A stretch of DNA of 64,000 nt from Phoronis australis. Taxonomy: Eukaryota; Animalia; Phoronida. The notes below the pieces were generated by a model, which was given only the letters and a program-made list of their open reading frames with translations, was not told where the DNA came from and did no database searches. This document shows positions 1-40,364 of this stretch, one piece after another. Numbering within the stretch: the stretch's first letter is position 1; each line of letters begins with the position of its first letter. The stretch is from positions 109,348 through 173,347 of the forward strand of contig NMRA01000521.1 of assembly GCA_002633005.1 (NCBI GenBank), given 5' to 3'. Both the position numbers and the translations under genes were made by a program.

Positions 1-1997
1 TTCTGTTTTAACTTGCTGCTCAATACCATTGAACAAGATTTTAAAGCCCATAGATTACTCGTTATGTCCGAAATCGCGCACATAAAATTTGAACATCCGT
101 CACACCCGCCCACGGAAATGCAGTTTTCAGATAATAAAAATGGGGGCGGGGATGCTAATGTGAGAGTTATTCACATTGAATGCTGCCAAAATTTCTCGAA
201 GAAATCACCATACAATGTACTCGCTGTTTTTTTAACACAGATTTAATCTAAACTCTTTCACACCAATACAGTTTTCAAATGTTCTGCCCCTATTAATATA
301 TTTGCGCGCATGGCTCAAAAAGTACACAGTGAACACTCTCCAAGAATAAATGTGCCACGATTGTTTTGTTTACGTCAAAGGTCAAAGGTAACATTTTGCA
401 TATGGCGGCGATGTGATACGCGTTGTCTTGCCGTAATGATTAAGAAGGCGACTGGTTTGTCTTGTGGAAGAAAAATGGATTAAGTGACTAGCAGTTGACA
501 GATCGTTTTGTTTTTAATTTCAAATTAAAGAAGAATTTAATTCCAAATCATTACGAACAAACCGCAAAACACAAGGTGAACAGTTTGACGTCTGTTTCAG
601 TGGCGGAAAACCACTTTAAATAATGAATTTAGTCTTTTTTCTATTTACATCAGTTAAACTAAGACAGCTATAAAATCAAATGAAGAAGATAGATACGCAC
701 TGGGCTTTCTCGGCATTTGTTGAGAAGTTCTAAGAACGTTGGTGATTCTCCATATACATGTATGTAGAAATCAGCATGTTAAAATTGGGCCACGCTCTAA
801 GATAAATAAAACAACATGTAAATTAAACTACTTTTATGCATGTTTTTGTGTTGTTATCTCATATTTATGAAGAGACCCATTTATTTTGGAAAATTAGAGA
901 AACAAGACATACAGGTATTATTACTTGAGCTTTCAGGGTCGACCAAAAACTAAATCAAATGGGTCATGTTTAGGAAAGTTTTGAGGTAGGCGTTGCATGC
1001 ACATCCAAAGAATCCGATTTGTTTTGATTTTTGAAAACGTTGGAAATGAGAAAATGGATGTACCACTTGTTTAGCTCTCGATTCAGTTTATCTTACGATA
1101 ACGGGTCTTGTCATCTTTGTGCGTTGTTACATGTGTATGTGACAACAGAAAGATTGGCTGCGATTTCGTGTATATCTCTCAAACAAGCCGGTAGTGTAAA
1201 AATCTATTGGTTGACAGCACTTTTGTACCGCATTGTTGGAATATGTATGAAATTTGCTTTCAGAATCTAGCGTTGGCTTATTATGCTTATCGACAGGGAA
1301 GCAGGTTTTTCGGAGTGAAAAGTGTCAAATTCGTCTTTTTGCCAGTTTACTTTCTTAACCTACTTTATTTTTTAGTAATTCTGAAAGGGTCAAACTAAAA
1401 GAGTAAAGTTTGTCTGCTTATCACTGAGGCTTTTTATGGGAAAAGACTTAAAACTTTCCATTTTTTTGCATATAGTTTGTGACAGAACGAACAAAAGGTG
1501 GTAGATCCACTGATTTTTTTTGGTTGGCACACCTCAGTGAGTGCTGGGTAAAGCTCAATAGCTCTCTCGAAGTGATGTCCAAGCGAGGTTCTAGTGTTAC
1601 TAAACCCAACCCTTGTCTGTGCCCCCTACGAGTAGATGTACCAGGATACCAATTCAACCGCCTCTATTAGAAACTAGCTGCTATTTCAGTGGCCAGTGGT
1701 GTTCGACTTGGATGTTAGAAGGGTCATATGAAACGGTTTATAAGAATTTCAAATGGGAGGGGCAGCACTAAAAAAGTGGAGGCTAAAGCCCCCTCAGCCC
1801 CCTTATGGTGCACCGCCAATACAGCACGTGCGGCATAGCACTGAAAAAAGTGGGGGGCGCCGCCCATGTTTCACTCCACCCTATCGGTCTCTACCGATTT
1901 TGTGGTCACGCTTTATCCATGTGTGTGAAGGAAACCACCCAGTCTTAATACCTCTTATCCACTCTGTGGTCACCAACACGGTTTGAGTTGATTCTAG

Positions 1998-2064
1998 GTT
2001 AGCGTCTGTGAAGGAGCTATTCGCTGTGCAAACAGGCTATCCGCTCGCCACTGATAAAATGACG
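1998..2064 (+). CDS. Tentative upstream exon of the DyP-GRE gene (LASVKELFAVQTGYPLATDKMT)
   Basis: attctag|g acceptor, acg|gtagaa donor, open and in phase with the exon at 2165 across a 100-nt intron. Contains an in-frame ATG at 2059; another in-frame Met lies in the next exon (AMSKSQPG). Confidence 0.45.
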
Positions 2065-2164
2065 GTAGAAGAATGGAGGCAACTGTACAGTATCTGATAA
2101 GCGTCACAGCAGTTTCAACGTCTAATCAAAAACTGTAATCGCCTATAAACATTATTTTTGACAG

Positions 2165-5100
2165 GTTCCCAACCAAGATGGTGAGATTCAACCTGGAGAG
2201 GCCATGTCGAAAAGCCAGCCTGGGTTGTTCTTCTATAAGCCTACCTATGGCAAGTTTATCACTGTTGACTTGCGGGGAGACGCTGTCCCAAGGACTGACT
2301 ACAAGAACCATTTCCTGACGTCTGTAAGTTCAACTGACATCCCTACTCTTAAATCTATTTGACATTATTGTCTCACTGTACCCATTCAGTGAGGAGTAAT
2401 GTTGTCTGTTTAAAGTAACTTGTCTCGACAGATTGTGTACGTATGCTGAAAATACATGCACGAACTGGCTACATCTGCAATTATGCGGTGGGTTCTTTGG
2501 GTACCTACTGAATGAGACAAATCACGAAGTGATACAATGGCCTATTTTTAAAAGAGCACTGTCTGTGTGGTGCGGCAGCATGACGATTAACGTCGCGATT
2601 TCGCCTACCAACACACGTAAGTTATGGCGATTTATAGAAACTGGCATGATATCGATAAACGAACATCCAAACCGTTGCAAATGTTAACAAGATTGAGATA
2701 CGGCACAAACAAAACGGACTTCTACAGAAATCAGGTAGAAATTTCGTCACCTACCTCCCTACATGTACGTCGAACCATTGTCAAAGTTTGAAATTGAAGT
2801 TGTTTGATAACTACTGCACCATATATTTATACAAAACGAGCTATCCGTTTACTATAAGATAGAATATATAGCAAGACCACACCATTCAATCAGTGCCTTC
2901 TGTCATACCCGATCCGCAGAAATTACTTAAGCATTTCAGTTTGTCCATATTTCGACAAGGGCTGAATTTACTTGGATTGGGAATTATTACTACGAAATTG
3001 CTTATACAGGTAATTTTAACCAATTCAAAGGCTCTTGAAAAATGCTTAACGGAAAGTAAAACATATACACAAAGCGTCTTTGAGTATGTCATGGCAGTCA
3101 CTGGTTTCTGTAATACACTGATGACACTAACAATACTTCTTGGTTTGTATACCTGTCCAATACATTTATCTTCTCACAGGTGCAGCAAATGGTGGAATAT
3201 AGCCGAAATTTAGATTCCAAGCAGTCTCGAACTAGAATTCTGGTAGGAGTCAATCCCAAATTGTGGGATGAATGGTAAGGACGGGCATAAGAGAAGATAT
3301 ACATTGCATCACAACAAAACACCCGGAATAAAAGAGCGCCTTTAGGTGGCACTCTAGGCTACATTTCGGTGCAATATATACATGTAATTGTTGTTCTCCG
3401 GACACTATTATTGCTACCGGCTAAGATTCTTCAGTGTTTGAAATAATTATTTTGCGTACGTCAAATTCTAACACTTCAAGGAACAAAACTGTTTACTAAT
3501 CGTTTACACAAACCATTCCATTTCACTCTTACCTGCAGGTATTTGCTATATTTCGACATTGTTATCACTCGGTGATTGTCAATATCGTAAATCGAACTAC
3601 ATGTATATCCATACGCTTCGAAGAGAAAGTGAATAGTTACCTTTTTGGGCTTCGCTGTTAGGTTTCCCAACAAAGACTACAATTTGGAACAACGTCCAGA
3701 AAGTTCGTTTTTAGTCGATGGATCCACAAAGTTCAAGAATGGTGGCAACACCGATTTGTTTCTCTATCTCAAGTCTGACTGTCAAGAAGATCTCGAGAAA
3801 CTATCCAAAATGATGCACGACATATACTTGGGGAAGCTTGAGGAGCTCATCTCATATCATGTAAGATTTTTAACTTTCCTGATGGTCCGTTAAACAATTT
3901 TGACTAAGAAATGCTGTAGAATTACATGTAAGCTTAGCGCAAACTTTTGAGGTCTTGTTCCCCCAACGTTTAAGCGAGCCAAAGCCAAACTGTGGCTAAC
4001 CCGTCCTATTCGATTCACAAATTAATGCTCGTGGCTTAGCCGCGATGATGAAGAAAGTACTCGCTAAGTTCTCTTATAATGCATAGACGGCTACTGTTTA
4101 GTTTTTCATTTTAAAAGCAGTCGTATCATGAATGCCAGATTTACGTTGAAATCTAGACACTGACATCTTTGGAATAACAAAATCGACTAATTTCTGAAAA
4201 CAGGTCATGTCGTCAGTGCCAAAAAAGTCTGGAGTTATCGAAGGTAGGTTTCAAGACGGCTTGGAAAACACATTTGATGTCCAGTCATTGGAGCGGTATA
4301 TACTTACAGGACCTCAAACTCAAGCCGGTCGTAATGGAGCCTTGGGTAAGAAAATGTGTTAGAGTCTCTCAGTTTGGAATATTTATCCACCAAACCTCCG
4401 CATGTTGAGTGATCACGTGCCTGGCATTATTAGGTCTATACCGGGGAAAAAGAAATAAAAAGTCACGTTACATTGCTAAACGCTTCCCGGATCCTGTTTT
4501 TTTTTCATTCATGTAATAAGGGACATTTATACACGTGAAACATTTACAAATCCGGATAATATGGTGTTCGCCGACAACTGTAATTGCACCTCTTGTATGT
4601 TCCTGCGTAGTTGAGACTGACTAGTTGCAGAGGTCGATAAAAATTTTCAAAAGGGTTAGTAATGTATAGCGCTACACAAAACCTGGCCTAATTATTAATG
4701 TGTATGATTTTGTTATTCTAATTTTATTTGACGGGGTCCAAAACATCAAAATAATGTCATAGTAAACAATCCCACACTAGTGATACACTTTTCGTGTATA
4801 TCAGGAGTAGATAACATCGCTGTATTCAATTTCTCTTAGACTTTAATGTTGACGAAATGCCAAGTGTTACCTGAAATAGAACGGTTTCAAAACACTACAT
4901 TGGCCTTTATTTAACCGTGGTGGCATCAGAGCACATGAGTGCAACCAAAATGGGCGCATTTTTCTTAAAACTCTTGACCGTCATTCGCGGAAATTGTACC
5001 CTCCACAAACGTGGCCAAGTTAGACGTGCACGTACTGATATCCGAGAACTTGGCTGTCAAAATTTTTTGTGGAACTCCGGTTCATTTTTTTCTAAAAGCC

Positions 5101-6615
5101 AAGTTCTCGGGGAAAGAACGTGACATAAAACCATGAGTTCACATTTGTACACCAGTAGCTTATATAAGGAGAACGAGTATTTACTATTTTAATTGTCTTA
5201 GGCAGTTATTCTACCATGTGACATCGATCAAAATCGGCAACTGAAAACACCCGAGTACTTAATTCGTCGACCGAAAAACATCCAAGTACTTTATTCGTGC
5301 CCAGTACGCCGCCTAGGGCTGAATTTCTGTGCTCATCCAGGTTTTTCATAAGTGAATTGTAATATTAGTTATTTGAGAAGTGAACTGAATAAACTCGACC
5401 TGCTAGTATCTACCATCAACACGTTATCCAGGAGATTTGACGACTATATACATGTAACATGTGTGGTCAACATGAATTTGACTTCGCACAAGAGTGATCG
5501 GACAAGAACATTACCACACAGTTGTGTTAATGAACACAAAACCTAAGTGCGGGGAATCGCTTTTATCTCTCAGTTCATATAGTTTTGTGTTTTATTCTAG
5601 GAGGTACCTATTGCTTCACGCAGAAGTTTCAGTTCTCCTGGAATCTGCTTAATGGAATGCACATGGGCGAAAAAGAAGACATGATTGGACGAAAAGTTAA
5701 TGGTTGCATTATTCCACTGAATGACGAAAGAAGTCACATTAAAAGAGCACGTGTTTTGAACGAGGAAGGGCAAATTTCCCATAAGGTACTGGAACATAAA
5801 TACTTCGCTCGCGAAAGTTATGACGTTACGCATACGGTTATCTTTTATGATTTTCGTTCGTGTCATCATGACCAAGATTGTTACTATATCATGTAGTCAG
5901 TTTGAAAACATTCTACCATTTGGCCAACTTCTTCTCAATATTCCCATTGGAAGTGTAAAATAAAGAAACTCCTCTCAATAACAACACGGATAAACTTTCG
6001 TCCCAAAGTGTTTCCACGAGTGCTGTATCTGATGTACATAAATCGTCATAACCGTTTATAGTAAGAGTTACGTGTACATGAATATGGTTTTAAAACAAAG
6101 GTACCTGTATTTTTGTGCAGCGAAATGACTATATTGCCCATGTGTTCTAAAAGTCTGTGTAAGAAGCAAGTACGCTGAAGATGACATTGTATCTAAGAAG
6201 AAAACTCGTGCAAATTTATCCTGAAGTACATTCACAGGGATTTAATCAATCCTGAAGTACATTCACAGGGATTTAATCAAGAGCTCAGATTCCAGATTAT
6301 TTCTAAATATTTAGTTGTTTGTACTGTTAGCGAATGCTGAATTTATATCCAATAATAATCATGCATATTTCATTCTTTTGTACATTTAAGCTGTATCGTC
6401 AGTCACTGCCCTACGGGATATCTGAAACTGGGCTTTCCAGAGAAGAGGGGGTATACTTTGTTGCATTTTGCAATACGCTCACAGCTATTCAAGATGTTTT
6501 ACGAAATCTTGCTGGGAGTGACCCAAACTTCACCGAAGACAAACTTATATCTAATGTTGATGGACTGGAAGGAAGCTTCTGGTATATGCCGAGTGCAGAA
6601 GAGCTTGACTCAAAC
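2165..6615 (+). other. DyP-type peroxidase domain (first six confident exons of the fusion gene)
   Basis: SQPGLFFYKPTYGKFITVDL; ILVGVNPKLWDEW; DLFLYLKSD; GRFQDGLEN (GxxDG-like, distal Asp codon 4255-4257); GGTYCFTQKFQFSW; EDMIGRK; SHIKRAR (proximal His 5735-5737); LYRQSLPYG (distal Arg 6397-6399); EEGVYFVAFC; GSFWYMPSAEEL. Confidence 0.88.
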
Positions 6616-9600
6616 GTGAGTAACAGCAAACATGGGATTTTTAGTCAAAACTTCAATGGCAGTTAATAATAATTAACAACCCAAAAGGTAATTCCCCCAC
6701 CTGCTTTCAGTGACGTCACTTGTTGATGTTGGTATAGATTTTCCGGGTGGTCGTAGAAAATCCACTGTTCCCAAATTAGAACATAGACGACATTAATAAA
6801 GAACAAGCTGCTTCTCGTCAAGCTTATGGAAACAGATTGAGTCTATGAAGGGGCTATTTACACGACCGTATGTTATCTGAAACCAGATAATCATAAGTTA
6901 GAAGGTGGTGGCAATTGTTCTTCAAAGAGAGCTTCTTGCATAAGTATTTTAACCCTTATTGTTCCTGCTATATCCGGTAGGAGCCTAGCCGCGCTCAAAT
7001 TATTCGTCTAAGATCTTAAGTCACAATTTACAACCGTGGACAATAACACGATACTCAGTTGTGTTGCTGTGTATGGCTTAGATAACAGATAATTTCTGTG
7101 TTTTACCTCACTTAGGTATTTTCTCATATGTATTTCATCCCGTGATGTTGATATTTAATCAAACAAAACATTACGGAGCAAGATCGCGGAAGTTCGAGTC
7201 GAAGCATCCAGGAATTGGGCACCGCAAAACTTATCTTGAACTTCTCGGAAGCATTCGTGTTTTTGTCCGGGATAAATGAGCTTGTTTCACAAATTAATTG
7301 AAAATTCTGTAAATTAACCACCGTATTTCAAAAATACGTTTACAATGAAATTTGGCGAAAGCGTGCCCCTGAGGAACATATTCAGGGAGTTGTAATTTTA
7401 AAGCCTCATGTGTTAGGTATTTCAGTAGTTATGTCAGTTTGCTATTACTCAGATTTGATTGTATTTGTTCAGGTCGGAATACAAGTACATAATATATGTA
7501 ATTGGTTCATCATGCCGATCAACATCCCACATGGAATTAATTCCGCATTCAAATCAGTTTCAGCCCGATAAGGTTCCCGACCTTGACCTTTTGGATCACT
7601 GGAACGTGAAACCAAAAACCAATCCGTACATGTTTTATAACTCGACGGAGTACATGCACCGTATGAGTACGGGGGCGTATGTTGATCAGGAAGATATTCC
7701 TTCTCCCCGGGTTCTCAAGCTCCTCCATAACACGTTTGCGCAGTGGAGAAATAGGTATGTTCTTGAACAACACATTTATCAGGTTTCATGAAATGAAGTC
7801 AAAGTATTTGTGCTCTACATGAGAAGTATCAGGAGTGCATGTAAGGGTTTCTGTGGTTTGTGGTTTGAAGTCCCATCCAAATAGCTCCCTTTATTCACAG
7901 TTTTCTTATAAAAGCTTACATACATCGTTGAAGCCGTCCTTTCAGAATTTACAAGTTTTTCAATGTCTCGGCATACCCAAATCACACCCCGTCAACACAT
8001 TCTTGGAACCAACTACTACAGTATAGATGTAGCACTAGACTGATTACCAAAGGTGCAGGTCATTGTAAAGCGAAATAGCTAAAGCGTTTTCAGTTAATAG
8101 AAATTAAGCTCAGTGCCCATCTTATCACCCCAGTCATTAAAATTCCAGTTTCACCAAATTTTCGAGCAACCCTTCACTCAGTCTCTACAACTTCTATGGT
8201 CCCCTTTAGTAACAAGATGTGTACCAACTTTCACGTTCCTAATGGTTCTTCAAATAGTATGCCCTGTAATTCATTGCAAGTTTATATAATGATACAATAT
8301 ATTTTACTCATTCAGGTACGCAGTAATCAAATTCGCTCGTTGAGTGTAGCAAACTCTTGAATGTGATTGTATTGATACCGTGATCTGAAGACCAAACAAT
8401 TTCCGAAACTCGAATGGAACAAATTCCATAGCACGCTGTGAGTAAACTTCCGAACCAATCTCGAACAATGCTGCATGAGTGGTTAAATTACCCAATGTTA
8501 GTCCGTGCCTAGTTTGATCCCTTAGAATAGGTCCTGGAATGTGTTGTACTCAAGTTTGTAAATATCAGTACATGTACTTCGCTTTTCCTAATGCAGATGG
8601 TACGTGAAGCCCGTTGTACCAGAGTACAGGCATTTAAAGAATTATGTGCACCGTTTTCTCGATGACCCTGACGACTTCTATCAGCTAAGCGTACCCCGCC
8701 GCAAGGGGTACGCGAATAAGATGACTTTGGGAGTTGCTATCACGGAAGAATACTACGGGAAAAAGGCTGACTTGTTTAGGATTTTCCCGGACGAAATAAT
8801 TGTGGGTGTAATGCCTCATTTTAGTCTGGGTCTTGGAAAGGTACGCGTGCACTTTAAACATTTTGAAGATATATGAGAGTTTTTGTAAATGTTTTGTAGC
8901 ATCTGAGCAATAAAACATTAACTTCTAAGCTGCTATAATATAGCGACAAAAATTATTATGAATTGTCGTTTTTGATTTCCTCGATAAAGATTGCTGAATT
9001 GATAGTACCGACGAACGAAATCAGAGTCTTGTCCATATAGTTTAAATGTCAGTCCTCTTGTATACTCCAAGCAAGATTTAGTTAATGGATTTAAACGTGG
9101 GTGGTGTTTTTTCGCGAAGTTGCTTCATAAAAAATATACGTTATCCAAAAATTAAACCTTTTCAGTTTTCGTTTTAACAAGCACACATACCTACCATACA
9201 ATTGATATGCCATGTGAAGAGCCACAATATTTAGAGACATTGCTACATTACAGGTTGTCATGCCTTATCTGAGCGAGATCGAGACGGAGGAGGCCTTCAG
9301 CGTGTATCTAAGTGAAGCAGGAATGATGGGGCACGTTGTACCAGATCACGGCGAACTTGTCACCAAAGGCATTGGGCAACTGATACAAGAGATTAAGCAG
9401 AATGCTCAAGTCGCAACCCTGGACCAGGATCAGAAAGAGTTTTACAACTCCGCATTGTCTTCCCTAGAAGGTGTTCAGATGTATATGACCAATTTCGCAG
9501 ACTTGGCAATGAAAATCTCTTATGAGGATAACCTTCCCAAGAATCAGGTAGCGGTTGTTGTTTGATCAAAAATTTTATAGTTGGTTCTGGTCTGTACTTA

Positions 9601-12600
9601 ACTTAGTTTGATACCATCGCTCCCTGACTAACACCACGATTTGCCAAGTGACCAGTAAAAACAAATAGCGCATCATTTTGCTAGTCTCGGGTGAAATTTA
9701 ACAATTACTGTAAAGTAAAAAACAAGCCATAGTCAACCGTTTCTTTCGCCTTATTTCTTTTTATACAGTTTGCATATGTAATGACGTCATATGCGCATTT
9801 ACTTGTCGAAGGAAACATGTTAGCATAGTCATGAGATTGTTCCCTGTTTCGTTGCCATTTCGATGTACATGACAGGCACTTTAGCCTACTGAAAACCTAC
9901 CTTATCACGTCCACAGCTACCGCAATTCCTTCCCACACAATCAGCTACTAATCATCGCTCAAACCATTGATTTTTGTGAATAACATAGAGTTATCAATGG
10001 TGAATTTCCGAAAGCACCGGCGACTCTGTACACTGAATGCAGATCTTGAACTCAAAACAAAAAAGGACACAATTCCAAGCACCACACATCACATACACTC
10101 GCCACCAAACCGCAACAATGATACTCCAAGGAATGCTAAAAAATGAACATGGCCATCGCTTACCAGCACTTACTAAAGGCAGCTTAAAGAAGTAGATAAT
10201 TAATTTATATCACTTGCCGCTTGGAATGAGTCATTCTAATTTACGGACATGTATTCCAAATATGCACAGATACACACTAATGTACACAGATGATCACGAA
10301 CCTGCCATCCAATTCAATCATCAAGTATCTTTAATTGCGGTTACATGTACAGTAATGCATGCATATTATATACAGGTACGCTGCATCACGTATAATTCTG
10401 CAAAATTCATTTACTTGGTTATGTGCGCTGCATATGGTCAACTGTTGATGACAGACTTGGTTGGAGTGCTTGTTGGCCATCTGGTTGAGTTTTTAAGAGA
10501 CTCCAAACTCCAAAGACACCTAGCAGCATTCAGTTCAAATTAGCGTCGCATGGCATGTATTGGCGATCATGCTCTTCATGGTAAAAGGGTGCCTTTTCTT
10601 GTCATAGTGTGTTTTAAATTCCTCAGATTTGCATCTAAGTTTTGCTAAAAAATTAACCAACGTATTCGCTATCAATACAACAGCTCAAAACCGTTCATTA
10701 TTTTGTAGGTTGACAGCTTGCGACAAATTCACGAGCGTCTAAACAGGTTGTCGGTGAAGCCTCCTGTTACATTTACTGACGCAGTTCAACTCCTGTTCTC
10801 GTTCCACTGTTGTCTTCATAACATTGGCGAGCCTGTTGCTCTTGGAAGACTTGATCAGATTCTGCTACCATTCCTCGATAAGACTAACCCAGGGGTAAGA
10901 AAATAACTGCCATTATAGAACTCTGGCTGCTGTTAATACCACATACATGTATGAGTATTTGTCAGTTGGTTTAAGTAGAAGGGAAAATACCTTCAAGTGT
11001 CAGTAATGCAGCGTGCTTGAAGATTTCGAGAAATGTAGCAATACGTACACTTGCATTTTCTGAGACTTTATTAAAAAGAATGACTTCCTTTGTATAGGAT
11101 GTACCCCCGCAGGACGTGATCGATGCGTTTTGCTTGAAACTTAGTGAGCGCGTGGAAATGAACAGGCATTTTATCAAAGACCTGGTTTACCCGGGGGTTA
11201 CTGCCGTTTTCTACCAGACTACTGGCAACTTTCCCCAAGGAGGAGGTTAGTTTTCTATACGTTCCTAATATTGAATTTACAATTAAAATATATCTATACG
11301 TTGTATCTGTGCCATCGAGTGACAAGTTTTCGAATTCTATTTTATTTCTTAATAAATTCTGCAAAATGTTGCCCTTTGCATTGAAAATGTTTGGCTATCA
11401 AAAGGTGTTGCATATACAGGCTAAAGTTTTACAAAGTTGCAAACCCTGAAAAACTAATCTTTTGGCTCTCGGATGTTTGTGTTCACAAACAACACTCCAC
11501 AACTCAATATCTCTCCAACAATACGACGCTCGATAGCATTGTGGTTTCCTTACAAGTAGTAACTTGATTAAAATAACTTTGGTTTCGTGAATCGATATAA
11601 TGGGTAATATCTTTACTTAATTGTTTATTCAACAAAATTTGTAAGGACGTGCAAACTTTGGTGGCGCTGCAAAAATGATTGCTGCGCGTTGTTGTTTAGG
11701 ACACGTTTTGTTCTAGCATCAACTGTAACAACGCATATTAAGTGGAGGCGCACGTTTTCGAAACTGCTGAACCACTGTACTTTGGACTCGACAACACAGT
11801 TTCAAGCACAATTGCTATTTCGTGCAAGTTGTGAATAGTTATATAAACGAGTAAAACAACCTCTGCTTTTTATCTTTCGCTCACAAGGTACTTTTCTTTC
11901 ATGTGGTAGGAATCAATCAATGGGTACAACAAGTAACTCTCGGCGGATACAAGGCAACTGACGAAGCAAAGCCGTCTCCGGGAATAAACGACCTAACTTT
12001 AATGTTTCTCAAAGCCACTCGCCGTCTTCCGTTGAACGCACCTTGTTTTTCTCTGCGCCTTTATAAAGGTATCGAGGATACAAAACTGGGGCAGGATATC
12101 GTGAAGGAAACTGCAAAGGCTCTTCTCAGTGGTGGAGCTCATCCAATCATATTCAATGATGACCGGCTCGTGTCTGGCTTGCTGACGAGCGGCGTAAAAC
12201 CCTATCAGGTTAGAAAATGGGCCTTACAAACCGAAATGACGGTCCTCCTAACTATTAATTCCTATAACGAATCTTGTGATAAGTTTGTGCTTGCTTTCAA
12301 CAGCTGGCAGCGCTCATGGACAGGTTAGATGCCATCAATATTTATTTTTGTAACCTACTGTGCATTTTGCCAAATTCGGCTCACAAAAGCCACCTGTAGA
12401 CGCTAAAAAGCTCACTATCCACTACAATTAGACGATGTGAATGCCCTCTCATGGAGTTTCGTTGCCAGTGTTATTCATGTCACTGACTGTACGCGGTTCG
12501 GACTCGAAGAGTCATCCTTCCAGTATGATCACTTACATTAACCTTCCAGACCTTAATGTAAAACGATTCTTATCTGTTTTGCGATATTCACTTAGGTTCC

Positions 12601-15421
12601 GCTGTATGCCGCAAGGGATTACGCTTGTGACGGATGCTATGAACCAATGGTTGCAGGGGCCTCAGAATTTGCCTTCATTACTATTCCTTTACTGAACATA
12701 GTGGAAATGGCTATTAACGAAGGCACTCTGTTCAAGATGGCTGGACCTGTGTTCTTACGCGGGAAGAAATCGTCATACAAAACTAAGCCTCCGGAAGAGA
12801 TACAGGATTTCAAAGAACTAATGTCTATCTTTGGACGACATCTCCATCTCCAAATTGTTAACTCGTGTTTGTTTATGCTTCAGAACTACGGAAACATGTG
12901 GAAGGTACAGGAGATGTTATTTACTTAAGTCGGTTAACTTAATGAGCGAAAATGACAGGAGAGCTTTCAGCTCCAGATACACTTTCAAGCGAACTACAAT
13001 TAGTCTAATAATGTCCACAGCAACAAGCTGACAATGTGTCACGTGACGAAAATGTGAAAAATGTATACCATACCTATATATCTAACCGTATTTAGTTCGA
13101 ATGGCGGTTCCATATATTTAGGATGATTCATTCCAAATAGGTAATTAACAGTTTTTCATGAACGTTATGCCGATTGAAAACAGGATCTTACTTTCTCTTG
13201 GACAGCTGAAATTACACTTGCTCATACTCTGTGAACAATTTCCCATTTCCCTCTCTGCACTTGTGAAGCAAATTGTAAACAGCATTATAAACACACAAAT
13301 TTAAATAGTGGCTATATTTCGAGGTCATGAAAGCATGTGAAGCCATTATTTTAAGTTGTTTTCTTGTAATGTCTTTGAAAGTCCTTTAAAGTGCACACTG
13401 GAAGACCGGAAAGTGTACAGACAGCATGAGCGAGTGTATATCAAGCTATCCAACAGAAAATACAGTTGTGTTTTCAATCATATGTACGTCAAAACCAAAA
13501 TATATTTGTCTGTAAAATAAACAAGAATGTTTAATATCTTTTTCTGGATACACACCTATATTTTTTTCTTTAAAGTGGTGCCCTTCTTCACTTTTGTCAA
13601 CCATCATCAAAGGATGCAAAGAAACTGGAAGAGACTTGTCAAACGGAGGTGCACTTTACCATATTCTGGCCATAATGTTCGTGGGTGCCTCGAACGCTAT
13701 TGATTCTCTGTATCGCATTAAAAAAATGGTTTTTGATCCTTGCACAGCTATTACTGATCTCGTAGACCTCGTTAATTGTCTAAAGGTACGTACTGTTCCG
13801 TGTTGTGTGTAACTGTCGGTTGTCAAATGGGACATATTTGTCGGTGTACTAGCCTATGGCTAATGTTTTCTCGTTGTTTGACCAACCGACTATAAATAAA
13901 ATGACCTGAATTGGTCATAGATGTTTAAATTGTTCGATTTCACGCTGTTGGGGTATACCGGAAAACAACCTTAACAAAGCCCCTTTCCCCAGCACAGACT
14001 AGACGTTCATGTATCATGAATAAAACGCATATTCGGGCTGGGATTAACATTTTTCATCTAAAACGGAAGAAACTTGTTAAGTATTGACTTTTTATTTAGT
14101 TGGAAATACAAGTTAATTAAAACAGAAGTGGGCTATTACGTCCAAGCTAGAACCACAGACGGTTTATTCTTTTTAATGTAAGTAAGAATTTGCGTTAAAT
14201 TATCGAGCATACTCGTAGGTTTCATCCGTCTAGTGATATGCAGAGAAGGCTTTCGTGAGAAAAGATCTTAGCAATGTGTTTGTCGATAAAGTACTACATG
14301 ACTGAATCGTTGGTACATGGGCTGCACAGCACTGAAAAATGTGGGAGTATACCCCTTCCCCCAGCCCCCTATGTTGCGCTACGCACGTGGTACAGTAATT
14401 TTTAACTCTGCCAAAATCCGTTAAACCTAAGTGCATGATATACATGTACGTCTTACTAGAACTATTTAGCAGTTTGGTCAAACACTTGTCGAAATTTGGT
14501 AGTTCTTTTAGACGAAAAACATTCATGCATGCGTTGCTATTCACTGAGTCATCGTTGTCTTGTATAATTCGAACACTATCGTATTTAGTTACACAAGGCT
14601 TCTTCGCAGTGGCTAGCAATCATAGTATTTGGTACTGAAAAGAGAAACATAACGATACATGTGTATGTGTTACCGAAAACAGTGATGAACAATGAGCTGA
14701 GGTGTACGGGGATTTCCGAAGGGTAAGCCAATGTGCCAAAACTTTCAGGCGTCTTAGTAACACCAAAAAGACAACCGTGCGTTTATTCGGGGAAGTCTGA
14801 TGTGTAAACGAAAAGTCATATTTTCTTATTTTTACTGAAAACAGGTTTTTTTTTAATTTTTTGTTAGTTCGTCAACACTTTGTTCGTTTTCACGAAAGAT
14901 AAATGCGCCACAAAATTAAACTTATAACTAAAAGTTGACTCTGAATGAGCTTTTAAGAGGAAGTTTTCCAGATGAGCCCTCCACTTTCTGGACACTTGAT
15001 ACCTGAAGTTGTAACCATCGAATAAAAGCTTATCGGCGTTTATTTGTCATAATTTTTCGAATAAACGCCCATGGGCGTTTCATCGGGTGGAGTTATCCAC
15101 GTAAAAAAGGTTTCGTTTTAAACCTGACAAGTTATCCTTGCATATGTATTTAAGTGTGACTGGGGATACGACATGAAGGAGCCTATGCAAGACATTAGAG
15201 CTGGAACAACAAGGTCTGTGGCCCATGGAGAGAAATACAAGAGATATCGACAAGTGGCCATGTCTTTCCCTAGGTTCGGGGAGGGAGTTGAAGATATCGA
15301 TCAGCTGGGACATGAATTGATGAAGATGGTCTACGACGAAGTGAGAAACGTTGTAAACTGCGCACCAGTCAAGGTAACTCTCACCGAGTCCCGTTTAGAT
15401 CAGTACTAGCTGTATGGATAA

Positions 15422-15486
<65 letters not shown>

Positions 15487-17221
15487 TTCATAATCGATAA
15501 AGTCTAGGAAGTCTGATGCAAAAATACACAGAAACATAGATGGCAAAATCACAAACGCAAGACACTATGTACATGAATGTGCGATGCGCAGCCGTAGGCA
15601 ACGTTTATAACGGGAACAGTGGGTGCGGAATTGTTGTTTGCTAACAATTTGCATTGCTTTCCACTAATCAAATTAAATAAGAACCATTTTCGAGAGTCGG
15701 ACGCGAACTAATTTTGGTCGATTACGTGAGCCGACCTGTCGCGCGGTTGGTGCCTTCACACTTGTTGCACCTCTTGGCTAAGGGCATGAACCTGCACCCT
15801 CTTTTGTTACAGACTCGAATGGAAAAACTGCGGCAAGAGTTCAACCTGTCTGGCTTCATCTTCACCCCTGGTACTGGTACGTTCGAAGGTTACGTAGGTG
15901 CAGGTTTGGACAACGGCGCGTCAGCTGATGGACGTCGAAGTGGTCAGCCGATTTGTTCAGATTTCAGTCCAAGCCCTAATCCACAAGACCTTGCGGCAGC
16001 TCCCATCTCGAGATATATATACAAGTAGGTAAAACCTTCTGACTATTGGCCCGTTACTTTTTGTTCATTTGTTGGTGCCACATGCATTGTAGTCAGTGTG
16101 ACGCATATTTCAAATGACTCGCAATAGATAAAAGGAATAGTGCAACTGTCCTTATACGAAATCTTCCGAAAGAAGTGAACGGCTCGAGAGGGCAATGGCA
16201 AACTTCTGCGAGCATGAACAATATGCGGTTGCAAGGTTGGTCTGTCCGCGCGCAAAGTGATATATATCCGCAAAAGGTGAAAACTGGTTCGGGAGGCGAA
16301 ATATGGGTCCTCACCGATGGAACATCGTGTTCTCCTAAAAATGTACCAAAAAGAATTAGAAATGTTTGAATCTGATTATTCTGCTGTTTTTTCCTCGATT
16401 TTGGCAATACATAAAGGAAGCCTCGTCATCTAACCAACTGCGGAAGGTGTTAAACTGCTTATACATGTACATGGCTTTGCAGTGGCTTAAAAAGCTGGAA
16501 CACTGAAGTGATCAACAGAGGATTCAGCAACGGCGCTCCAGTGGATCTGAACATAACAGAAAGAACCTCTCAAAATTTCCTGGAGACGTTCATAAAGGAC
16601 TTTGCTAATGAAAGAAATGGGATTGGTTCCAACCTGCTCACTCGTAAGTGGGTTGACACTTAAATAGGCCAGAGGCTTTCGCACTGTTCTCTCCTCAATT
16701 ATTTTCGGTCCAAAATGATTTACAACAGCTAATCTGGTAATTTCCCGAAATGGTTTTTAAAGCAAATTAGACCTTACTAATCACCGTGTGAGTTCCTACT
16801 CTTCTCCAGTTAACAAAACATCCGAAGCCAATTGTAGTGATTTCTAGCTACGTAATTGCATTGGCATCTCACTATCTCATTATATTTTATACACTATCAG
16901 AATGCTAACTCACACCCGCCTTACCTTCAGGCTTCTGAAGCTGCACTGTCTTTCATTGTTGCAGTATCCTGTCACGATCCAGATACTCTGACTGCCGCAC
17001 GTGACGACCCTGAACGCTACGAACTCGTTCGCTGCAGACAAGGTGGCTGGACAGAGTACTTCTCAATTATGTTCCCTGAGCATCAAAAGCATCACCAGAG
17101 AAGAATCTACTTCGACGGCATCAAACGGGATGTGGGCAAAAGCAGACACCTACGCACAAAGCTGCAGTACAGAGATGACGGGGAGGACGTGGAAGATGAT
17201 ATAGTGGACGCACTATTCTAA
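2165..17221 (+). CDS. Multi-exon gene encoding a DyP-type heme peroxidase / glycyl radical enzyme (PFL-like superfamily) fusion protein, about 1,250 aa; 5' end uncertain
   Basis: Hand-assembled GT-AG exons with matching phases: 2165-2323, 3180-3274, 3662-3860, 4204-4345, 5601-5785, 6391-6615, 7558-7754 (alternative acceptor 7564), 8597-8840, 9254-9547, 10709-10894, 11098-11245, 11910-12208, 12596-12904, 13576-13785, 15155-15373, 15813-16024, 16483-16643, 16965-17221 (TAA). Total 3741 nt = 1247 codons including stop, with no internal stop seen. DyP motifs in the first six exons, GRE motifs in the rest. Confidence 0.9.
6218..6280. repeat. 31-bp direct tandem duplication in an intron
   Basis: atcctgaagtacattcacagggatttaatca occurs twice in succession (6218, 6249). 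Confidence 0.9.
7558..17221 (+). other. Linker plus glycyl radical enzyme domain (PFL-like barrel and Gly-radical C-terminal domain)
   Basis: IFPDEIIVG; GHVVPDHGELVTKG; FYNSALSSLEGV; PPVTFTDAVQ; LGRLDQILLPF; QVTLGG; NDLTLMFLKA; GGAHPIIFND; Cys loop ARDYACDGCYEP (Cys codon 12635-12637); GCKETGRDLSNGGALY; SNAIDSLYRIKKMVFD; PRFGEG; GASADGRRSGQPICSDFSP; DTLTAARDDPERYELVRCRQGGWTEYF (putative radical Gly 17045-17047). Confidence 0.92.
15424..15483. repeat. (TA)n microsatellite in an intron of the DyP-GRE gene
   Basis: About 30 uninterrupted TA units. Confidence 0.97.
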
Positions 17222-19655
17222 TCCCTTGCACGAAAAGCCGATTTCTAAGTTGAAACGGCTTTATTCTGATCTTAGATTTGTATTTTTTCTGTGTAGGATT
17301 CCGTCGTTTACGCTTTAGGATACTTACTAGCGTTAATGTAAACTGGTTTTCTTTGCTTGAATTTTTTGGTGTGACACAGCTTTAAATTCATGTTTAAATA
17401 ATGTATGGAGTTTTCCAATTTCTACTGTGTTTTTTTCGTAGTGCAAATCTGCAAAATGCTCTCAGAAATTATTTTTCCGTGACTACCGACTGAACAAAAG
17501 TATCTCTGGTAAATGTAAGAGTTCATGTGAAAATTACCTCTCAAAGTGGTGACTGAAATCTCTTTGAATACGGGATAATTCCCATGTACGATGCACATGT
17601 ACGCTTTAAAGTTACACGGATTTAGTATTTCTAATTTACTGCTTGCCATAAATTAACATTAGTCCAGTGTTTTTTTGTTTTTTTTTAGCTTCTGAGTATC
17701 TCGATTATTGGCTTCTTCACAAATGTTTACATCATAATTTTTTGTTACGCTATCCTAAATCTGACTAACGGTTAATTCCCCTGCAATATTCTCTAGAATT
17801 CTACTGCGTACAAAATACACCCTCACTTGCCTGACCCAAGCGTCGATCAAACGGGAGACCTAACAAGTCATGAGGGCAAATGGAAAATTGCAGTTAGTCA
17901 CTCCAAAAGCGTTACGAACTCTGATTTTTTTCTCAGGATCAGAAACTTTCGCTCAGTCACAAGTTATTCTTTCAACAGATGGTTAACGTGAAGTGATTTT
18001 TTAGGTTTTGTGACAAACGTACGTAACTTCATGTTGCCAAAATAAGTCACGATTACTGTTTAACTCGGCATTAGTGAGCACTTTACCACCAGGTCGTGAT
18101 TCGAGCGTTGCTCTTCATATGTCGCTCCCGCCGTGGTAAGATGCGTGCAGATGAAATACTCTGAGATACATGTACGCCATGCAATTTTGTTGAAAACCTG
18201 TTGTTTGCGAACCACCACACCACTCGGTTTCGACATATTTTTGCCGTGCCAAACGCCTGGTAGTTCTTTTTGCTTCCGGTAAAAGTACGATTATGAGGGA
18301 ATTGTGACAGTCCGTTGTATTTCATTCATATTTATAAAGTTTTATGAACTCTTCGAAATGAAAACTTTGTCCAAGCATTTAATGGAAGATATATGTTTCA
18401 TGTTTCAATTCTCTGTATGCTTGAATGCGTGCGAAGATGTAATTCAAAACGTGCAACTCAGAACCGTGAAGGACGTCTCTTTCCTATACAGTTGTGTAGA
18501 AAAATAATTTGCGAGTGACTTTGAAATGATGTGTTATTTATGCATCCTGGACACAACGATGGCCGCTTATTTCTAGAGAACTTGGAGTCCGTCAGGGTTT
18601 TATATTTTTATAAAATTAAACAGACCTGAGATCGTGATTACAAGTCAAAAAGTGAAGGATGTGAATGAGGACGAAAACAAGAAATTAAAGGGATATCAAA
18701 CTCAGTTTATGGGATAATAGGAGGTGGTTAAACTCATCAAAACAGGCTTTAGTATCCCTTTAACAGCTCTATGTATGTGGGTCACAGGTGGCTTCAGTGG
18801 CAGGGCTCTGCGCCTGGTTGAATGAAACATGATAATGGTTTGATCTGAATTACGGCTTTTGATCTTGCTTTCTGAAACTTGGCCAAATGTTTTGCGCGCG
18901 TTTTTTTTAAGTGAAAAACTTAGTTTAACAACTAATGCACACAATTAAAAGTACTTGGCTGACGAACTTTTATTTCATGTCAATGTCATTGAGTTCGTAC
19001 ATGGGTTTCTGTATAAATTGATCTTACTCTAATAAACAAATAAACATATTGGGGCATGAAAATCATATTCTGTTCAACCTCCAGCTTTTGGCTAGAAAGT
19101 ATTTAAGTTTATACCTATGCATTCTAGACTAGGCTTTTTGACGGAAACCAAAAAAGAGAGTCGAGAAGGTAATATGCTATCTGAAATCTAATAGATTGTT
19201 GTTTTGAGAAAAGGCGTGAATTTGCGAAACATCACTGAAAGACTTCGTCAAGAGATGTTTACACACATATTAAACGCATACGCACAAACACACGCACACA
19301 CGCAAACACTCACAGTCACACACGAACCATAAACAAAATAAAACCATAAACTCCTGCCTTTGGAATGCCAGAGGTAATCGTGAAGTACTTATTACGAATG
19401 TCAAAATGGTTTCTCATTGAAACGTTTTCAACAATAACGTTATAAAGGTATTTGACTTTACCATAATTGACTGCGGGTTTGTTTAAAAGGTACATATCGT
19501 GCTATTGTCACACTTGTGTATTTTGATACTGAAATGCGCTTCATGTGTAATTTAAAAGTATATAAATTCACGAATTCAAGTAAAATGCATTCAGTCTATA
19601 TCGTCAGTTTGCCTTATGGTGAATCACGCGCTATCACGCACTGGTAAAGGTGCTA

Positions 19656-20119
19656 CTATTGATTGATCGTGTTACCATCTTTCGCACCATTTGTAGCCGG
19701 TAAGACTTCATTTCCTATGCTATACTGCGTGTCGTTACCTGTTTGGTTCACTTTATGATAGCCGTTGGTTTCATCAGCCAACTTTCCACTTTCTGTTTTG
19801 TCTGTTATGCATGCAGTCTGAAGACTCTTGGAATAAGCTAGTTTTATTGAACTTCCAACCGGACCGCTTAATGTCTTGTTAAGGCTCTGATCTATGTGTG
19901 TAGTGATCTTACTCATCAGCGCTTCTTTGGTTTTACTTCTTTCGTCTAACATCAGTTTTAGATCGCCCATTTCGAGCAACAAAAGGTCCATATCTTTCTC
20001 AAGTCGTATTCGCCTTTTCGTGTGCTGACTATGGTTCAAGATACACAATATCAACAATGCCAATGTCATCATTAAGAGCAGTGCTATGATGATAGCTTCG
20101 GTAATGATGCTCCTTTCAT
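19656..20119 (-). CDS. Terminal exon of a single-pass membrane protein (TM helix plus cytoplasmic tail)
   Basis: ttttcag| acceptor at 20120, phase 1. IITEAIIIALLLMMTLALLILCIL is followed by basic HTKRRIR and about 125 aa of tail to the stop. May be the last exon of the SUEL/kringle gene further right. Confidence 0.65.
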
Positions 20120-22799
20120 CTGAAAATGTAAAAGCATACGTACTATTACTTAACAAAACATCATTTCCATGAACGTACATCCCCTGACCGTGATTTTCCA
20201 TTATAGACAATAGCCCTTTTGAATGACATGTCATTTCAGTTTGTATCAAACTGCAAATTCCCAGCTCAAGATACACCTGTAATTGCATGTTCTTGTCAGC
20301 CAACAAAACACGACATGTAATAAGAGGTTCTTCGGTTTATTTTTTCGGTATTCTGAAGAAAGTAATCTCTGTATATTGGTTAAATCACATTACTCTGCGA
20401 TAGAAACTATAGGTTTGGTTAATATTTTAGAGGAAGAGTTTGTTACTGTTTTCAACGCGGCGTAGGATCATGCTAAAATCAGATTATCTAGAACTTAGCG
20501 AGAGACTCAAAATGTAGTGAATGTCCTATTCCGTTCATTTCTCGGAGTGCTAAATATTGGCCAGTACAAGGATACAGGTTTTGACCCAGGGCACCCGGAA
20601 AGACTGACGTCAATGCATGTATGTGCCGCCATTAGAGAGTTTCCACAGAAACAAGAACGGAGGTAGACACACGATATCTGGAACGTTTACATCGTAATAC
20701 AACTGAAAGTTAATGAAATTCAAACAATGTTCAAACAGCTGTTAAAAGGTCATTCTTGAGACGAGGAGTGAAATTTGGAGTTTTAAATTGTGCACATGCT
20801 TTTGGTTACCTTACAAATATCATTTCTATCTGGCGTGCAAAATTGTATTCTGCATATGATGGGGTTTTGAATCTCACAGTAAACATGCACAGTACACAAA
20901 ATTAATGTTCTAATTAAGAAAAAGGTTTACTTGCATTTGATCTTAATGGTACCACACAACAACCTACAAATTGTGTTATAAAGTAGAAATTTTATTGGAA
21001 TTTGATCATGCAGTGTTGTACCTACCGTGAGTGACACCCGTGACGAAGACTCGTGGTGTCACCCCTCACCCACTCAGCCCCAACTTGGTTTAAGAATTTA
21101 GAAAGTCATATGGCGTGAAACACAAAATGCAAAATTTACTGTGGTTCATAATACAAATGCTGCTGGTACATGTACAAGGCTTTAAAGGCATTGTAACACT
21201 AGACCAAGGCTCACTTGTAAGCCTCTGGACCTAGAGACATAGTGCCCGGTTGCATGAAACAGTACGGTCCCAAAAAGTGTCCCCATTAAGTTCACTAATT
21301 CTTTTGCTATTTTTTCGTTCTTCGCTCACAGATGCAATATTGTTTCGGTTAGTTTACCTTTATTATGAGCTCTTCTTTGTCTAAATGATATTTTCTTATA
21401 AGATAACTAAAAACTGAGACGTTTTTTTTCAATAGTACATGTAATTCAACGTAGAGTTCCCTCTCAATTTGTATGAAAGCCAAACATTGTCTTATCTGAT
21501 TCAATGAATCTCAAACAACATCAGATAGGACAGTGTTTTCCCATTCCCAAAAATACGCAGTAGATTTAGGATTCCATCAGGCTTTTTTCCCAAATAAACG
21601 TACTGGGCGTATCTGCGGAAAATTTTCATTATGGACAGGACTCAACTTTGTTAGGCCATCGTGTGTTAAGGACTCGGTGGCGAACAATTCTAACACCAAC
21701 CCGGGAAAATGGTGTGGAATTTGATGGCCCCTACTTTATGTATTATGCTGTCCAAATGAAATTTTCAGCTGACAGTTATTTTTCTTTGGTCTTTCCACTT
21801 CAAAGTTCCTGATTCATGCGTTTTGTAGATTGCAGTTGCTGCTTCATTTCATGCCATTCTTTTCTCACTTGAATGAATTCAGCTTCAAGGTCGAACACTT
21901 TGCTTCCCATAACCTCCATTGTTTCATTTTTGTTTTATGATGCCAAGCAAATCCTATCTCTCGTTTGTAAACACAGCATAGCTGGGAAAGGTCACTACTG
22001 TCGCCATTTTCAGTAGTGGGGCTGTTGGTGTTGATTTTGCATTCTCCGCCTCTGGTTTCAGACATGTTCGGCTTTCTTGGATGATTGAACTTCAGTATCT
22101 TTCGCAGTTGAATGCTAGAGGCGATAGTTTAAAGAGGAAATTGCGTCGGAATTTTGTTCACACACGTCTCTTTTCTGTCAATAAATTGTTCGCTGTAAAC
22201 GCAACGTTCCTTCTTTGGTTTGAATCGCATTGTTTTCTTTTCCTGGTTGTGAAAGTTAAAATACACTTGGAGATCGCCTAGAGGAGATTGTGCTAAGCGG
22301 AGTCAGCGTTTTTCTTCCGCTTTCCTGGAATGCGTTGCTCGAACCACAACCGATTCCATACATGTTGCTGAATTTATTGCACATAACGTTAACTAGTCGT
22401 GTTGTAAAGTGTCTCATTCTGTTTGCAATACATTGTCCGCAGTGAAAGATATTCTGGGTTGTATGTCAGTTTACCTGAAAACTGCACCATTCACAAGAGT
22501 AACACATTACTGGTACACCTGAGTTTTCCTTACACAACACGACATTTAATTGTCCAGAATTTCCACAGAATAAGAACAAGAAAACCACGAAACCGTTTCA
22601 GGGAAGTCATAAAATAACTAAATTTTGTCGTTTGCACCAACTAGACCGGTATCCCAGAGCTTTTTGAGCCTGAAAATATATTAAGCAATTTTGTTTGGTA
22701 CCACTGTGGTCGATGGGTTTCCTCATGCTTGGAAATGACCGTCTGGCAGGTTCGCTCTGGTAGTTGTGGTCAGAGGAGTCAAGAGAAGATCACTCAAAA

Positions 22800-23440
22800 T
22801 TTGAGCTAGATCAACTTTTCTGGTAACCACTTCAAACTGCCTTCGATACCTACTACGTAATCCACGGTATCAACATTGGTCATTGCCAGACAATTTCAGT
22901 GGTGGAGAGTAGCAGCCAGACAGTTATAAACAAGGTAAAAAATTGAGCTCGATCAATCCAGGAGGTAAGCGATAGAAACCAGTTGCAAAACATTCACAAT
23001 GAGCCCTGTTATCACGAATAAACACAGCCACACAAATATAGTGGTGGGTTAGCCCCGCCAGACACGCCAAATACCTGAGTTGAGCTAGATCGAAGTACCC
23101 ACTAGCTGACCGTATGAACCAATTGTACGATGTTCAGCATCACTGCACATAGCACAACAGTAAGATGCCAGACAATTTCAGCGGTGGGGTGTGCCTGCCA
23201 GACGACTAAACAAATGACTAAAATTTGAGGTAAATCAACTCAAGAGGTAACCTCATGAAACCAGTTGCAAAATATTCTACGTAAGCCCATGCATCATGAA
23301 TAAACACTGCGAGACAAGTCACGGGTTAGTCCCGCCACACTCGACCAAATGCATGTATCTGAGTTGGACCAGATTTATCCGCCAGGTAACCGTTTGAAAC
23401 CATTTGCATAATGTCGAGCAACATTCTGCATGCAAAAAAA
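22800..23440. repeat. Degenerate satellite, about 140-bp monomers in an about 282-bp dimer
   Basis: ttgagctagatcaa-like motif recurs near 22801, 22943, 23080, 23225, 23363. tgccagacaatttcag at 22884 and 23166; gaaaccagttgcaaaa repeats at similar spacing. Confidence 0.75.
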
Positions 23441-23546
23441 GGTTCATTTCCGGCCGTGGGGCAGTAGCATGCAGAGATCTGGTTGATGCAGGGGTGACTT
23501 TTTATCGATCGCCTCTCTCTCTCAACTCAAGAATATATATCCTATT

Positions 23547-23735
23547 CAGGCCCGTAGCCAGCACTGAGCGGGGGGGGGGGCTGGTTCGTTCAAATTACAT
23601 GAACGGTGGACCTTAGATATTTTGCCAACGTCGACACTAAAGAATTTTCGGCAAGGCTTTTACTGCAGCTTAATTAGGTGGACGGGAAATCTGTGTACAC
23701 AACGATGACTTTCAGTTCTATGTTCATGAGATGAG
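23547..23735 (+). mobile_element. Non-autonomous DNA transposon (MITE-like) end fragment, copy 1
   Basis: Starts caggcccgtagccagca...gaacggtggacctt...aacgtcgacact...tacacaacgatgact; a diverged copy lies at 63213-63410. Confidence 0.65.
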
Positions 23736-24029
23736 ACGGAATTTGTAATACCAGAATTGACGATTCTCTGACGGTTGCTCGCATAGAACGGGACACAAAT
23801 TAGGATGTGATTTGGTCCAGAAAGAGAACGTTCTCGCATTATCTCCAACCAAAGTTTCGAATATCAGCCATGCTTAAATGACTCATCACACCTCATTCCA
23901 TACTCAGACGGAAACATGAAGATTAGTCGGCGAATGACTTAATTGACAATTTTTTTCTGGCTGCTTTTAGCGTGTTATTTAAGTTGCTTACCTCGCTGGG
24001 AATTAGAACAGCCCACCATTTCGAGGGTT

Positions 24030-24147
24030 TGTTGAGTAGTTAGTTATGTAACTGTTAGGTGGCGCTAGTGGAGGGAGTTGGAATAAAGATGGCTTCCGTC
24101 TAAGACTGTGTTTATTTTATCACATACAAAATCCGTCAACATCAACT
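24030..24147 (+). repeat. 5' LTR
   Basis: tgttgagtag...catcaact, identical to 28651-28768, contains AATAAA. Confidence 0.95.
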
Positions 24148-24165: not shown

Positions 24166-24173
24166 CGCGAAAA

Positions 24174-40260: not shown

Positions 40261-40364
40261 AACACTGAATATTGAAAATAGTTCATTTTCGCTCTAAAAC
40301 TGCGTTGCAAATGCTCTCCGCGGCATCAATCGGTTGTACCTATACCATGCAAGTACGACATATT

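Follow-up and report, generated by a model that had tools for sequence, protein, structure and literature searches.

The subject of this analysis is a stretch of 64,000 nucleotides of the Phoronis australis genome (NCBI GenBank assembly GCA_002633005.1, contig NMRA01000521.1, positions 109,348 to 173,347 of the forward strand), hereafter called the window, and in particular the gene that occupies its positions 1998..17221 on the plus strand. This is a genuine and intact animal gene. Its product combines a heme peroxidase with a glycyl-radical-type enzyme and belongs to the DyP-PFL fusions, a known family also termed DyP subclass P2. What emerges is an unrecognised breadth of this family in animals, together with a hint of a radical enzyme that is free of an activase.

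In order to obtain the gene model, the plus strand was read in three frames and the splice sites were chained, which gave 19 exons in a single open frame of 1268 codons with the stop codon at 17219-17221 (Table 1). An earlier note on this DNA, made from the letters alone, had counted at least 17 canonical GT-AG introns; there are 18, of 100-1369 bases, all of them GT..AG. The G+C content is 46% in the coding sequence and 37.6% in the introns. Translation may begin at the Met at 2059, at the Met at 2204 or in a further exon upstream of the window. The model can be regarded as real because it aligns end to end, beyond chance, with single-chain fusions of bacteria and animals. A Pfam scan that covered 17 of the 19 exons detected Dyp_perox_C in exons 6-7 and a PFL-like domain above the cut-off in exons 10, 11, 13, 14 and 15 and weakly in exon 16; Gly_radical gave no match on exons 18-19, and weak matches below the cut-off in the relatives P0124 and P0250. 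The order within the one chain is a DyP peroxidase followed by the barrel of a PFL-like glycyl-radical enzyme (GRE). A simple check of hydropathy and termini found no signal peptide, transmembrane helix or obvious peroxisomal targeting signal type 1.

The window protein is 44.6% identical to a single-chain bacterial fusion over its whole length (1232 columns), it aligns end to end with single-chain DyP plus PFL-like proteins of bacteria and ascomycetes, and its closest relative among the matches listed is an amphioxus protein (46.4%). Against 10 outgroup rows the gene falls inside the clade of bacterial and fungal fusions with support of 100/99. Instead of the two separately domesticated enzymes, a GRE and a DyP, that had been supposed, there is one known fusion family. 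A second DyP-GRE fusion was observed in P0154 and P0178; it carries another DyP type (PF21105) and is likely to be independent, because it branches among unfused GREs.

DyP subclass P2, or the DyP-B-PFL fusion, has been covered by Yoshida and Sugano 2022 (PMC9719856) and by Zamocky et al. 2016 (PMC5041501). In the parts of these two papers available to us the fusion is described for bacteria and ascomycetes, as uncharacterised, and both assume a radical S-adenosylmethionine (SAM) activase. The available part of PMC9719856 gives 51 metazoan sequences, 11 of them outside its Table 1 and possibly including P2 members, and the supplement of PMC5041501 contains two Branchiostoma floridae entries (C3Z553 and C3Z8Z6, of 1220 and 1214 amino acids) that its section 17 does not discuss; C3Z8Z6 falls in the cluster of P0212. 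A literature search, with most subscription journals outside its coverage, returned no paper on the animal DyP-PFL family or its activation. Within the texts available, animal members are on record yet undiscussed, and neither the breadth of the animal clade nor the scarcity of activases was found in print.

DNA and RNA reads were mapped over positions 1-20000 of the window. The four DNA runs contain 71-90% of the sampled words; they represent one sample, possibly the source of the assembly, and hence are not independent. Contigs of DNA run X1 cover the gene and its flanks at a depth of 39.5-50.4 with 0-1 differences, and one of them, free of differences, starts within the last exon at 17188 and extends beyond 20000. 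RNA was taken from three runs with the same species label. Stranded reads lie on the exons, and none in clean introns, in the three runs. In the rows displayed, RNA backs 12 of the 18 introns, through joints at introns 5-11 (seven) and loose ends at introns 2, 3, 4, 12 and 15 (five); introns 1, 13, 14, 16, 17 and 18 are not among the displayed rows.

Most RNA reads differ from the window sequence and stem from a paralogue, so that the RNA mainly confirms a structure shared with that copy. The paralogue is present in the same DNA sample and differs by about 14-17% in the DyP exons and by less in the GRE exons. In DNA run X2, one contig aligns to exon 2 with 21 differences and to exon 4 with 24, has 1397 other bases between the two, and therefore represents a second gene copy with the same introns. 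Between window and paralogue, 37 silent and 20 replacement codons give a rough omega of 0.15, counted on 62 listed differences taken solely from the best-supported rows; the earlier note was right to see a gene under selection. Independently of this, a spliced antisense RNA was seen at 4436-5916, with its joint at 4435/5917 (9 reads in RNA run X5 and 5 in X6) and CT..AC ends, skipping across exon 6 on the minus strand.

The possibility of a contaminant, an assembly chimera or a non-animal source has in its favour that read mapping was restricted to the first 20000 positions, and against it the 18 spliceosomal introns, the stranded spliced RNA, the flat DNA depth, the tree placement among named animal proteins and an animal-type flank; we consider its probability negligible, in agreement with the earlier note, which had already dismissed a bacterial contaminant. 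The note had also described the gene as contiguous with a metazoan-type flank. A kringle domain (PF00051, E=6e-13, 30224-30574 on the minus strand) and transposons of Ty3/gypsy and LINE (long interspersed nuclear element) type are indeed present in the assembled flank; the identity of the exon at 31934-32401 as SUEL-like was not confirmed by Pfam or PDB.

The catalytic residues of both domains are strongly conserved. Across 101 family rows, Cys827 and Glu829 occur in all 101 and Gly1211 in 96; of the DyP heme triad of the window protein, consisting of distal Asp191, proximal His266 and distal Arg285, the first is Asp or Glu in 92/101 rows, the second is kept in 99/101 and the third in 93/101. 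Trp420, Trp424 and Trp718 are each found in 101/101 rows. An alignment of 140 rows contains 124 near-invariant positions, among them 8 Trp and 2 Tyr, and many of these positions line the barrel.

The fold was modelled on the relative P0046, which groups with bacterial members, and not on the window protein. The AlphaFold model of its whole two-domain chain has a pLDDT of 93.9 and a pTM of 0.94, and because of these values it suggests that the two domains are held in a fixed mutual arrangement. Residues 352-1199 of P0046 superimpose on eliminase GREs with a Z score of about 34 and a root-mean-square deviation (rmsd) of 2.5 over about 710 aligned residues, and residues 10-312 on DyPs, with their dimeric ferredoxin-like fold, with a Z score of 32.6 and an rmsd of 2.1 over 291. 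The ten-stranded GRE barrel with its Cys loop and C-terminal Gly loop is present in the P0046 model, Cys827 and Gly1211 are present in the window protein, and in the HMMER alignment the GGW of the family lines up with the RVAGW found in an archaeal GRE. No solved structure of a DyP-PFL fusion was found by sequence or fold search.

The Pfam name PFL-like could suggest a true pyruvate formate-lyase (PFL) serving anaerobic fermentation in a sediment dweller. The active site of PFL is an adjacent Cys-Cys pair, and Cys-x-Glu is the mark of eliminase-type GREs. Every one of the 101 rows has Cys-x-Glu, within DGCYEP in the window protein, instead of the Cys-Cys pair. The best structural matches are eliminases, PF02901 scores 290-390 bits for the fusion versus about 700 for true PFLs, and reef corals and a sea star are among its carriers; we rejected a true PFL as extremely improbable.

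Table 1. Exons of the DyP-PFL fusion gene, in window positions.
Feature	Position	Strand	Description
Exon 1	1998..2064	+	Acceptor site at its 5' end; possible start codon Met at 2059; the least certain of the exons; intron 1 without an RNA joint among the rows displayed
Exon 2	2165..2323	+	First exon of the DyP domain, with the QPGL motif and the Met at 2204
Exon 3	3180..3274	+	DyP N-terminal half; RNA loose ends
Exon 4	3662..3860	+	DyP N-terminal half
Exon 5	4204..4345	+	Distal Asp191 (4255-4257) within FxDGxxN
Exon 6	5601..5785	+	Proximal heme His266 (5735-5737)
Exon 7	6391..6615	+	Distal Arg285 (6397-6399); end of DyP domain
Exon 8	7558..7754	+	Linker; conserved aromatics Tyr384 and invariant Trp420
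Exon 9	8597..8840	+	Invariant Trp424; start of GRE-like part
Exon 10	9254..9547	+	PFL-like
Exon 11	10709..10894	+	PFL-like; GRLDQ
Exon 12	11098..11245	+	-
Exon 13	11910..12208	+	PFL-like; NQW, invariant Trp718
Exon 14	12596..12904	+	PFL-like; Cys loop DGCYEP with Cys827 (12635-12637) and Glu829 (12641-12643)
Exon 15	13576..13785	+	PFL-like
Exon 16	15155..15373	+	Weak PFL-like
Exon 17	15813..16024	+	GTFEG, ASADGRR
Exon 18	16483..16643	+	Glycyl-radical-domain region
Exon 19	16965..17221	+	Gly loop RxRxGGW with Gly1211 (17045-17047) and Trp1212; stop codon

The family is mostly bacterial. The homologue lists comprised at least 120 rows each, and the counts of its distribution are lower bounds. 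Animal homologues among the matches listed come from Patiria miniata (7 proteins in one cluster), Branchiostoma species, Porites, Montipora, Hydractinia, Macrobrachium, Palaemon, Halocaridina and Mytilus coruscus; they are full-length in corals, Hydractinia, prawns, amphioxus and sea star, and partial in the mussel. The protists listed are Phalansterium, Pelomyxa, Mastigamoeba and the choanoflagellate Diaphanoeca. Since fusion homologues occur in at least five named animal phyla, the gene is not special to the window lineage, and a lineage-specific transfer was rejected. A homologue search with exons only (7 hits of 32 candidates) contained no animal proteins, a misleading result, since later searches found animal members; in the ESM Atlas exon 14 had no hit, and P0030 matched only the family itself in few taxa. 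It was also observed that P0124, P0208, P0209, P0212 and P0213, of sea star and amphioxus, have basic N-terminal motifs resembling nuclear localisation signals, which are absent in the coral and prawn members and in the window model.

A FastTree analysis of 101 rows recovered the animals as one clade (99) and the fungi as sister to betaproteobacterial copies (100). With 37 hand-picked rows and a mixture model in IQ-TREE, support was 98 for the animals, 96 for the window gene with Patiria and Branchiostoma, 100 for cnidarians with protostomes and 94 for Phalansterium as sister. After removal of two long Archamoebae rows, the animals received 100/98 and animals plus Phalansterium 97/96, while the subgroup of the window dropped to 77/92. 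The animals also group in each of the single-domain trees, with Archamoebae inside in that of the GRE part, and their clade is separate from the fungal and choanoflagellate copies. Approximately unbiased (AU) tests, for which the groups were chosen after the trees had been viewed, rejected a holozoan origin (animals plus choanoflagellate, p=6e-10), one opisthokont origin (animals plus fungi, p=3.4e-6) and a bilaterian clade (p=4.5e-4), so that the animal gene tree is not the species tree. Animals plus three Amoebozoa were not rejected (p-AU 0.68, 5.7 log-likelihood units above the free tree). The fungal copies were gained from bacteria, and at least two non-animal eukaryote groups fall among bacteria. 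No donor clade of the animal copies was resolved in the trees with outgroup rows.

We infer that the animal gene goes back at least to the common ancestor of cnidarians and bilaterians, unless it entered twice from related donors; the best explanation of its distribution is that it was lost, or has escaped detection, in many animal lineages and was duplicated locally. Transfer into early animals and descent from an ancestor shared with Amoebozoa are about equally probable. We lean slightly towards a microbial transfer, either one into the animal stem or two, into the sea star, amphioxus and window group and into the cnidarian plus protostome group. The mostly bacterial family, the other eukaryotes among bacteria and the rejected bilaterian clade are in line with it; no donor clade was identified, and old paralogy with differential loss also explains the split among animals. 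Vertical descent from a forebear common to animals and Amoebozoa, with loss on a massive scale and with separate bacterial gains in fungi and the choanoflagellate, fits the position of Phalansterium as sister to the animals, the tolerated grouping with Amoebozoa and a family root that the trees do not place. It relies on three amoebozoans only, all of them long branches, it requires very many losses, and the groupings of animals with the choanoflagellate and with fungi were rejected; we give it somewhat less than an even chance. The phylogeny against bacterial, fungal and protist homologues that the earlier note had called for hence yields animals mostly in one clade and a departure from the species tree, and no donor. 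Of its proposal of an ancient transfer or rare retention, an old, microbial-type and patchily kept gene stands; lineage specificity does not, and the transfer into animals is left without a resolved donor.

The search for an activase covered 54 bacterial loci, drawn from the best 80 of 198 confirmed stretches, 41 of them with at least 4 kb on both sides. None of these loci showed an activase-like gene next to the fusion; the motif CxxxCx[aromatic]C occurred in 5 of their 1592 open reading frames, and the 2 that were scanned were a UPF0004-type radical SAM protein and DUF1272. The window has no frame with a radical-SAM motif. Thirty genomes were then picked from the 54 loci for isolates and long contigs, and 22 of them had no GRE activase over the cut-off of five models (TIGR02494 0, PflA 3, NrdG 0, NrdG2 7 and YjjW 0, with a union of 8 carriers). 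Each of the 3 PflA genes adjoins a separate true PFL gene, and of the 5 genomes whose titles call them complete or closed, 4 had no activase over the cut-off; in controls the same models exceeded it in 1-3 of 14 genomes. In most of the bacterial carriers examined, a cognate radical-SAM activase was thus not recognised. The 54 loci show no conserved metabolic operon. Recurrent neighbours are phosphoesterases (10; L008, L010, L012, L013, L016, L031, L035, L036, L038 and L052), GMC oxidoreductases (4), DNase II (4) and multicopper oxidases (3). The GMC oxidoreductases are a possible source of H2O2, and the phosphoesterase and DNase II neighbours are possible clues to the substrate.

Characterised GREs need an iron-sulfur radical-SAM activase and do not survive oxygen, and to our knowledge GREs are not counted among animal enzymes. 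For the fusion we propose, with about an even chance of being right, that the heme domain generates the protein radical from peroxide in place of such an activase and that the protein is a radical lyase. H2O2 or a peracid would turn the heme into compound I, the hole would pass via conserved Trp and Tyr residues to Gly1211 and Cys827, and the thiyl radical would take a hydrogen from a small hydroxylated substrate, with Glu829 as the putative base, a chemistry known from the eliminases glycerol dehydratase, propanediol dehydratase and CutC. By extension, animals from corals to amphioxus may have possessed, since before the cnidarian-bilaterian split, a self-activating, activase-free GRE-type enzyme that works in air; we place this just short of an even chance. 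The peroxide-primed mechanism is suggested by the joint conservation of heme ligands and Cys and Gly loops, the scarcity of activases in bacterial carriers, the rigid fusion, the second, apparently independent DyP-GRE fusion and the peroxide induction in Chaetomium, where the DyP-PFL gene is induced 3-fold by H2O2 and 18.5-fold by peroxyacetic acid (PMC5041501).

Several observations weigh against this proposal. RNA of the window type is a minority in run X5 (5/29, 3/42 and 2/49 reads at three diagnostic sites) and amounts to 0/27, 0/32 and 0/16 in run X6. Regarding the age of the animal clade, an LG+G4 tree with bootstrap draws the long Archamoebae branch into the animal group and leaves the animals as one clade in 46% of trees, and the GRE part with outgroups has a family base without resolution and an animal clade in 64% of trees. 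The 30 bacterial genomes came without completeness figures. The closest relatives of the family (P0007, P0129, P0182 and P0164) have similar loops, and Pfam detects no DyP domain in them. Because O2 cleaves glycyl radicals, an aerobic enzyme would need a short-lived or shielded radical. Finally, no assay of any member of the DyP-PFL fusion family was found in the literature.

A rival reading, proposed in section 3.2 of PMC9719856, is a conventional GRE. A radical-SAM activase, borrowed or unrecognised, would activate it under low oxygen, and the DyP domain would serve only as protection from H2O2. The Gly and Cys loops are canonical in position, unfused relatives exist, weak radical-SAM matches below the cut-off occur in most of the 30 genomes, and for Chaetomium a putative PFL activase is reported in PMC5041501; these last two points also count against peroxide priming. 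The many genomes lacking an activase over the cut-off, the PflA genes that sit with their own PFL and the empty neighbourhoods of the fusion make this explanation unlikely in our view. We hold it to be just as doubtful that the protein is a peroxide-detoxifying or oxidative enzyme whose GRE barrel binds a substrate or holds a Cys/Gly radical sink, without lyase chemistry. The intact DyP triad, the induction in Chaetomium and the lack of a conserved operon would agree with it, but the invariant eliminase-type Cys-x-Glu and the many near-invariant positions lining the barrel fit a specific substrate reaction. The idea of an anaerobic-type enzyme with a role in hypoxia or sediment living found no support, because the anaerobic activase is missing from most of the bacterial carriers tested and the only printed expression datum, in the part of PMC5041501 available, is induction by peroxide.

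Further features were observed in the flanking sequence. A convergent minus-strand gene at 19659-32401, probably one unit, would comprise the Cys-rich exon at 31934-32401, the kringle exon and an expressed exon with a membrane-like helix at 19659-20336. The Ty3/gypsy-type element at 24030-28768 (plus strand) would then occupy an intron; it has an intact 1465-codon frame (pol) and is a recent insertion, since its 118-nt terminal repeats are 100% identical. A weak THAP match and broken LINE-type pieces lie at 36574-36759, 39141-41523, 49415-51226 and 63563-64000, with zf-RVT and RVT_1 confirmed for two. A frame of 202 codons at 42259-42864 (minus strand) has a membrane-like stretch and no Pfam match, and is possibly the last exon of another receptor gene. 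The sequence TACATGTA occurs 31 times in the window, versus about 1.9 expected from base composition; it is presumably enriched in several marine invertebrates, and a literature search on TACATGTA yielded nothing on animals.

With its radical Gly and Cys retained, a peroxidase fused to it and activases mostly lacking, this family offers a direct test of another start for radical chemistry, one that, if true, could be usable under aerobic conditions. Corals, farmed prawns, mussels and early deuterostomes are seen to have a metabolic enzyme that had been overlooked, and the debate on transfer versus loss gains a clean case.

The window protein shares with DyP subclass P2 the N-terminal class P DyP, the C-terminal PFL-like domain, a length of about 1200 amino acids and 37-46% identity over the full length. 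It resembles the microbial-like deuterostome genes of Simakov et al. 2015 (PMC4729200), which are intron-rich, similar to microbial enzymes and debated between transfer and loss; the DyP-PFL family extends beyond deuterostomes, and its terms had no match in the passages of that paper available to us or in two of its supplements. Class P DyPs (DtpB 8pws, YfeX 5gt2 and Dictyostelium DyPA 7o9j) have the same fold (Z about 32.5), distal Asp/Arg and proximal His, but they are stand-alone enzymes of 300 amino acids, and the usual animal DyPs are unfused and of subclass P1, according to the part of PMC9719856 available. The GRE eliminases (glycerol dehydratase 1r8w, propanediol dehydratase 5i2g, CutC 5fau and PflD 8id0) have in common with the fusion the full barrel and C-terminal radical domain (Z about 34 for the P0046 model), the Cys-x-Glu loop and a Gly loop in register. 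They are only 22-26% identical to it, whereas the fusion adds a heme domain, has RxRxGGW instead of RVxG[YW] and stands without an activase gene alongside; many of its carriers, unlike those of eliminase GREs, are presumably aerobes.

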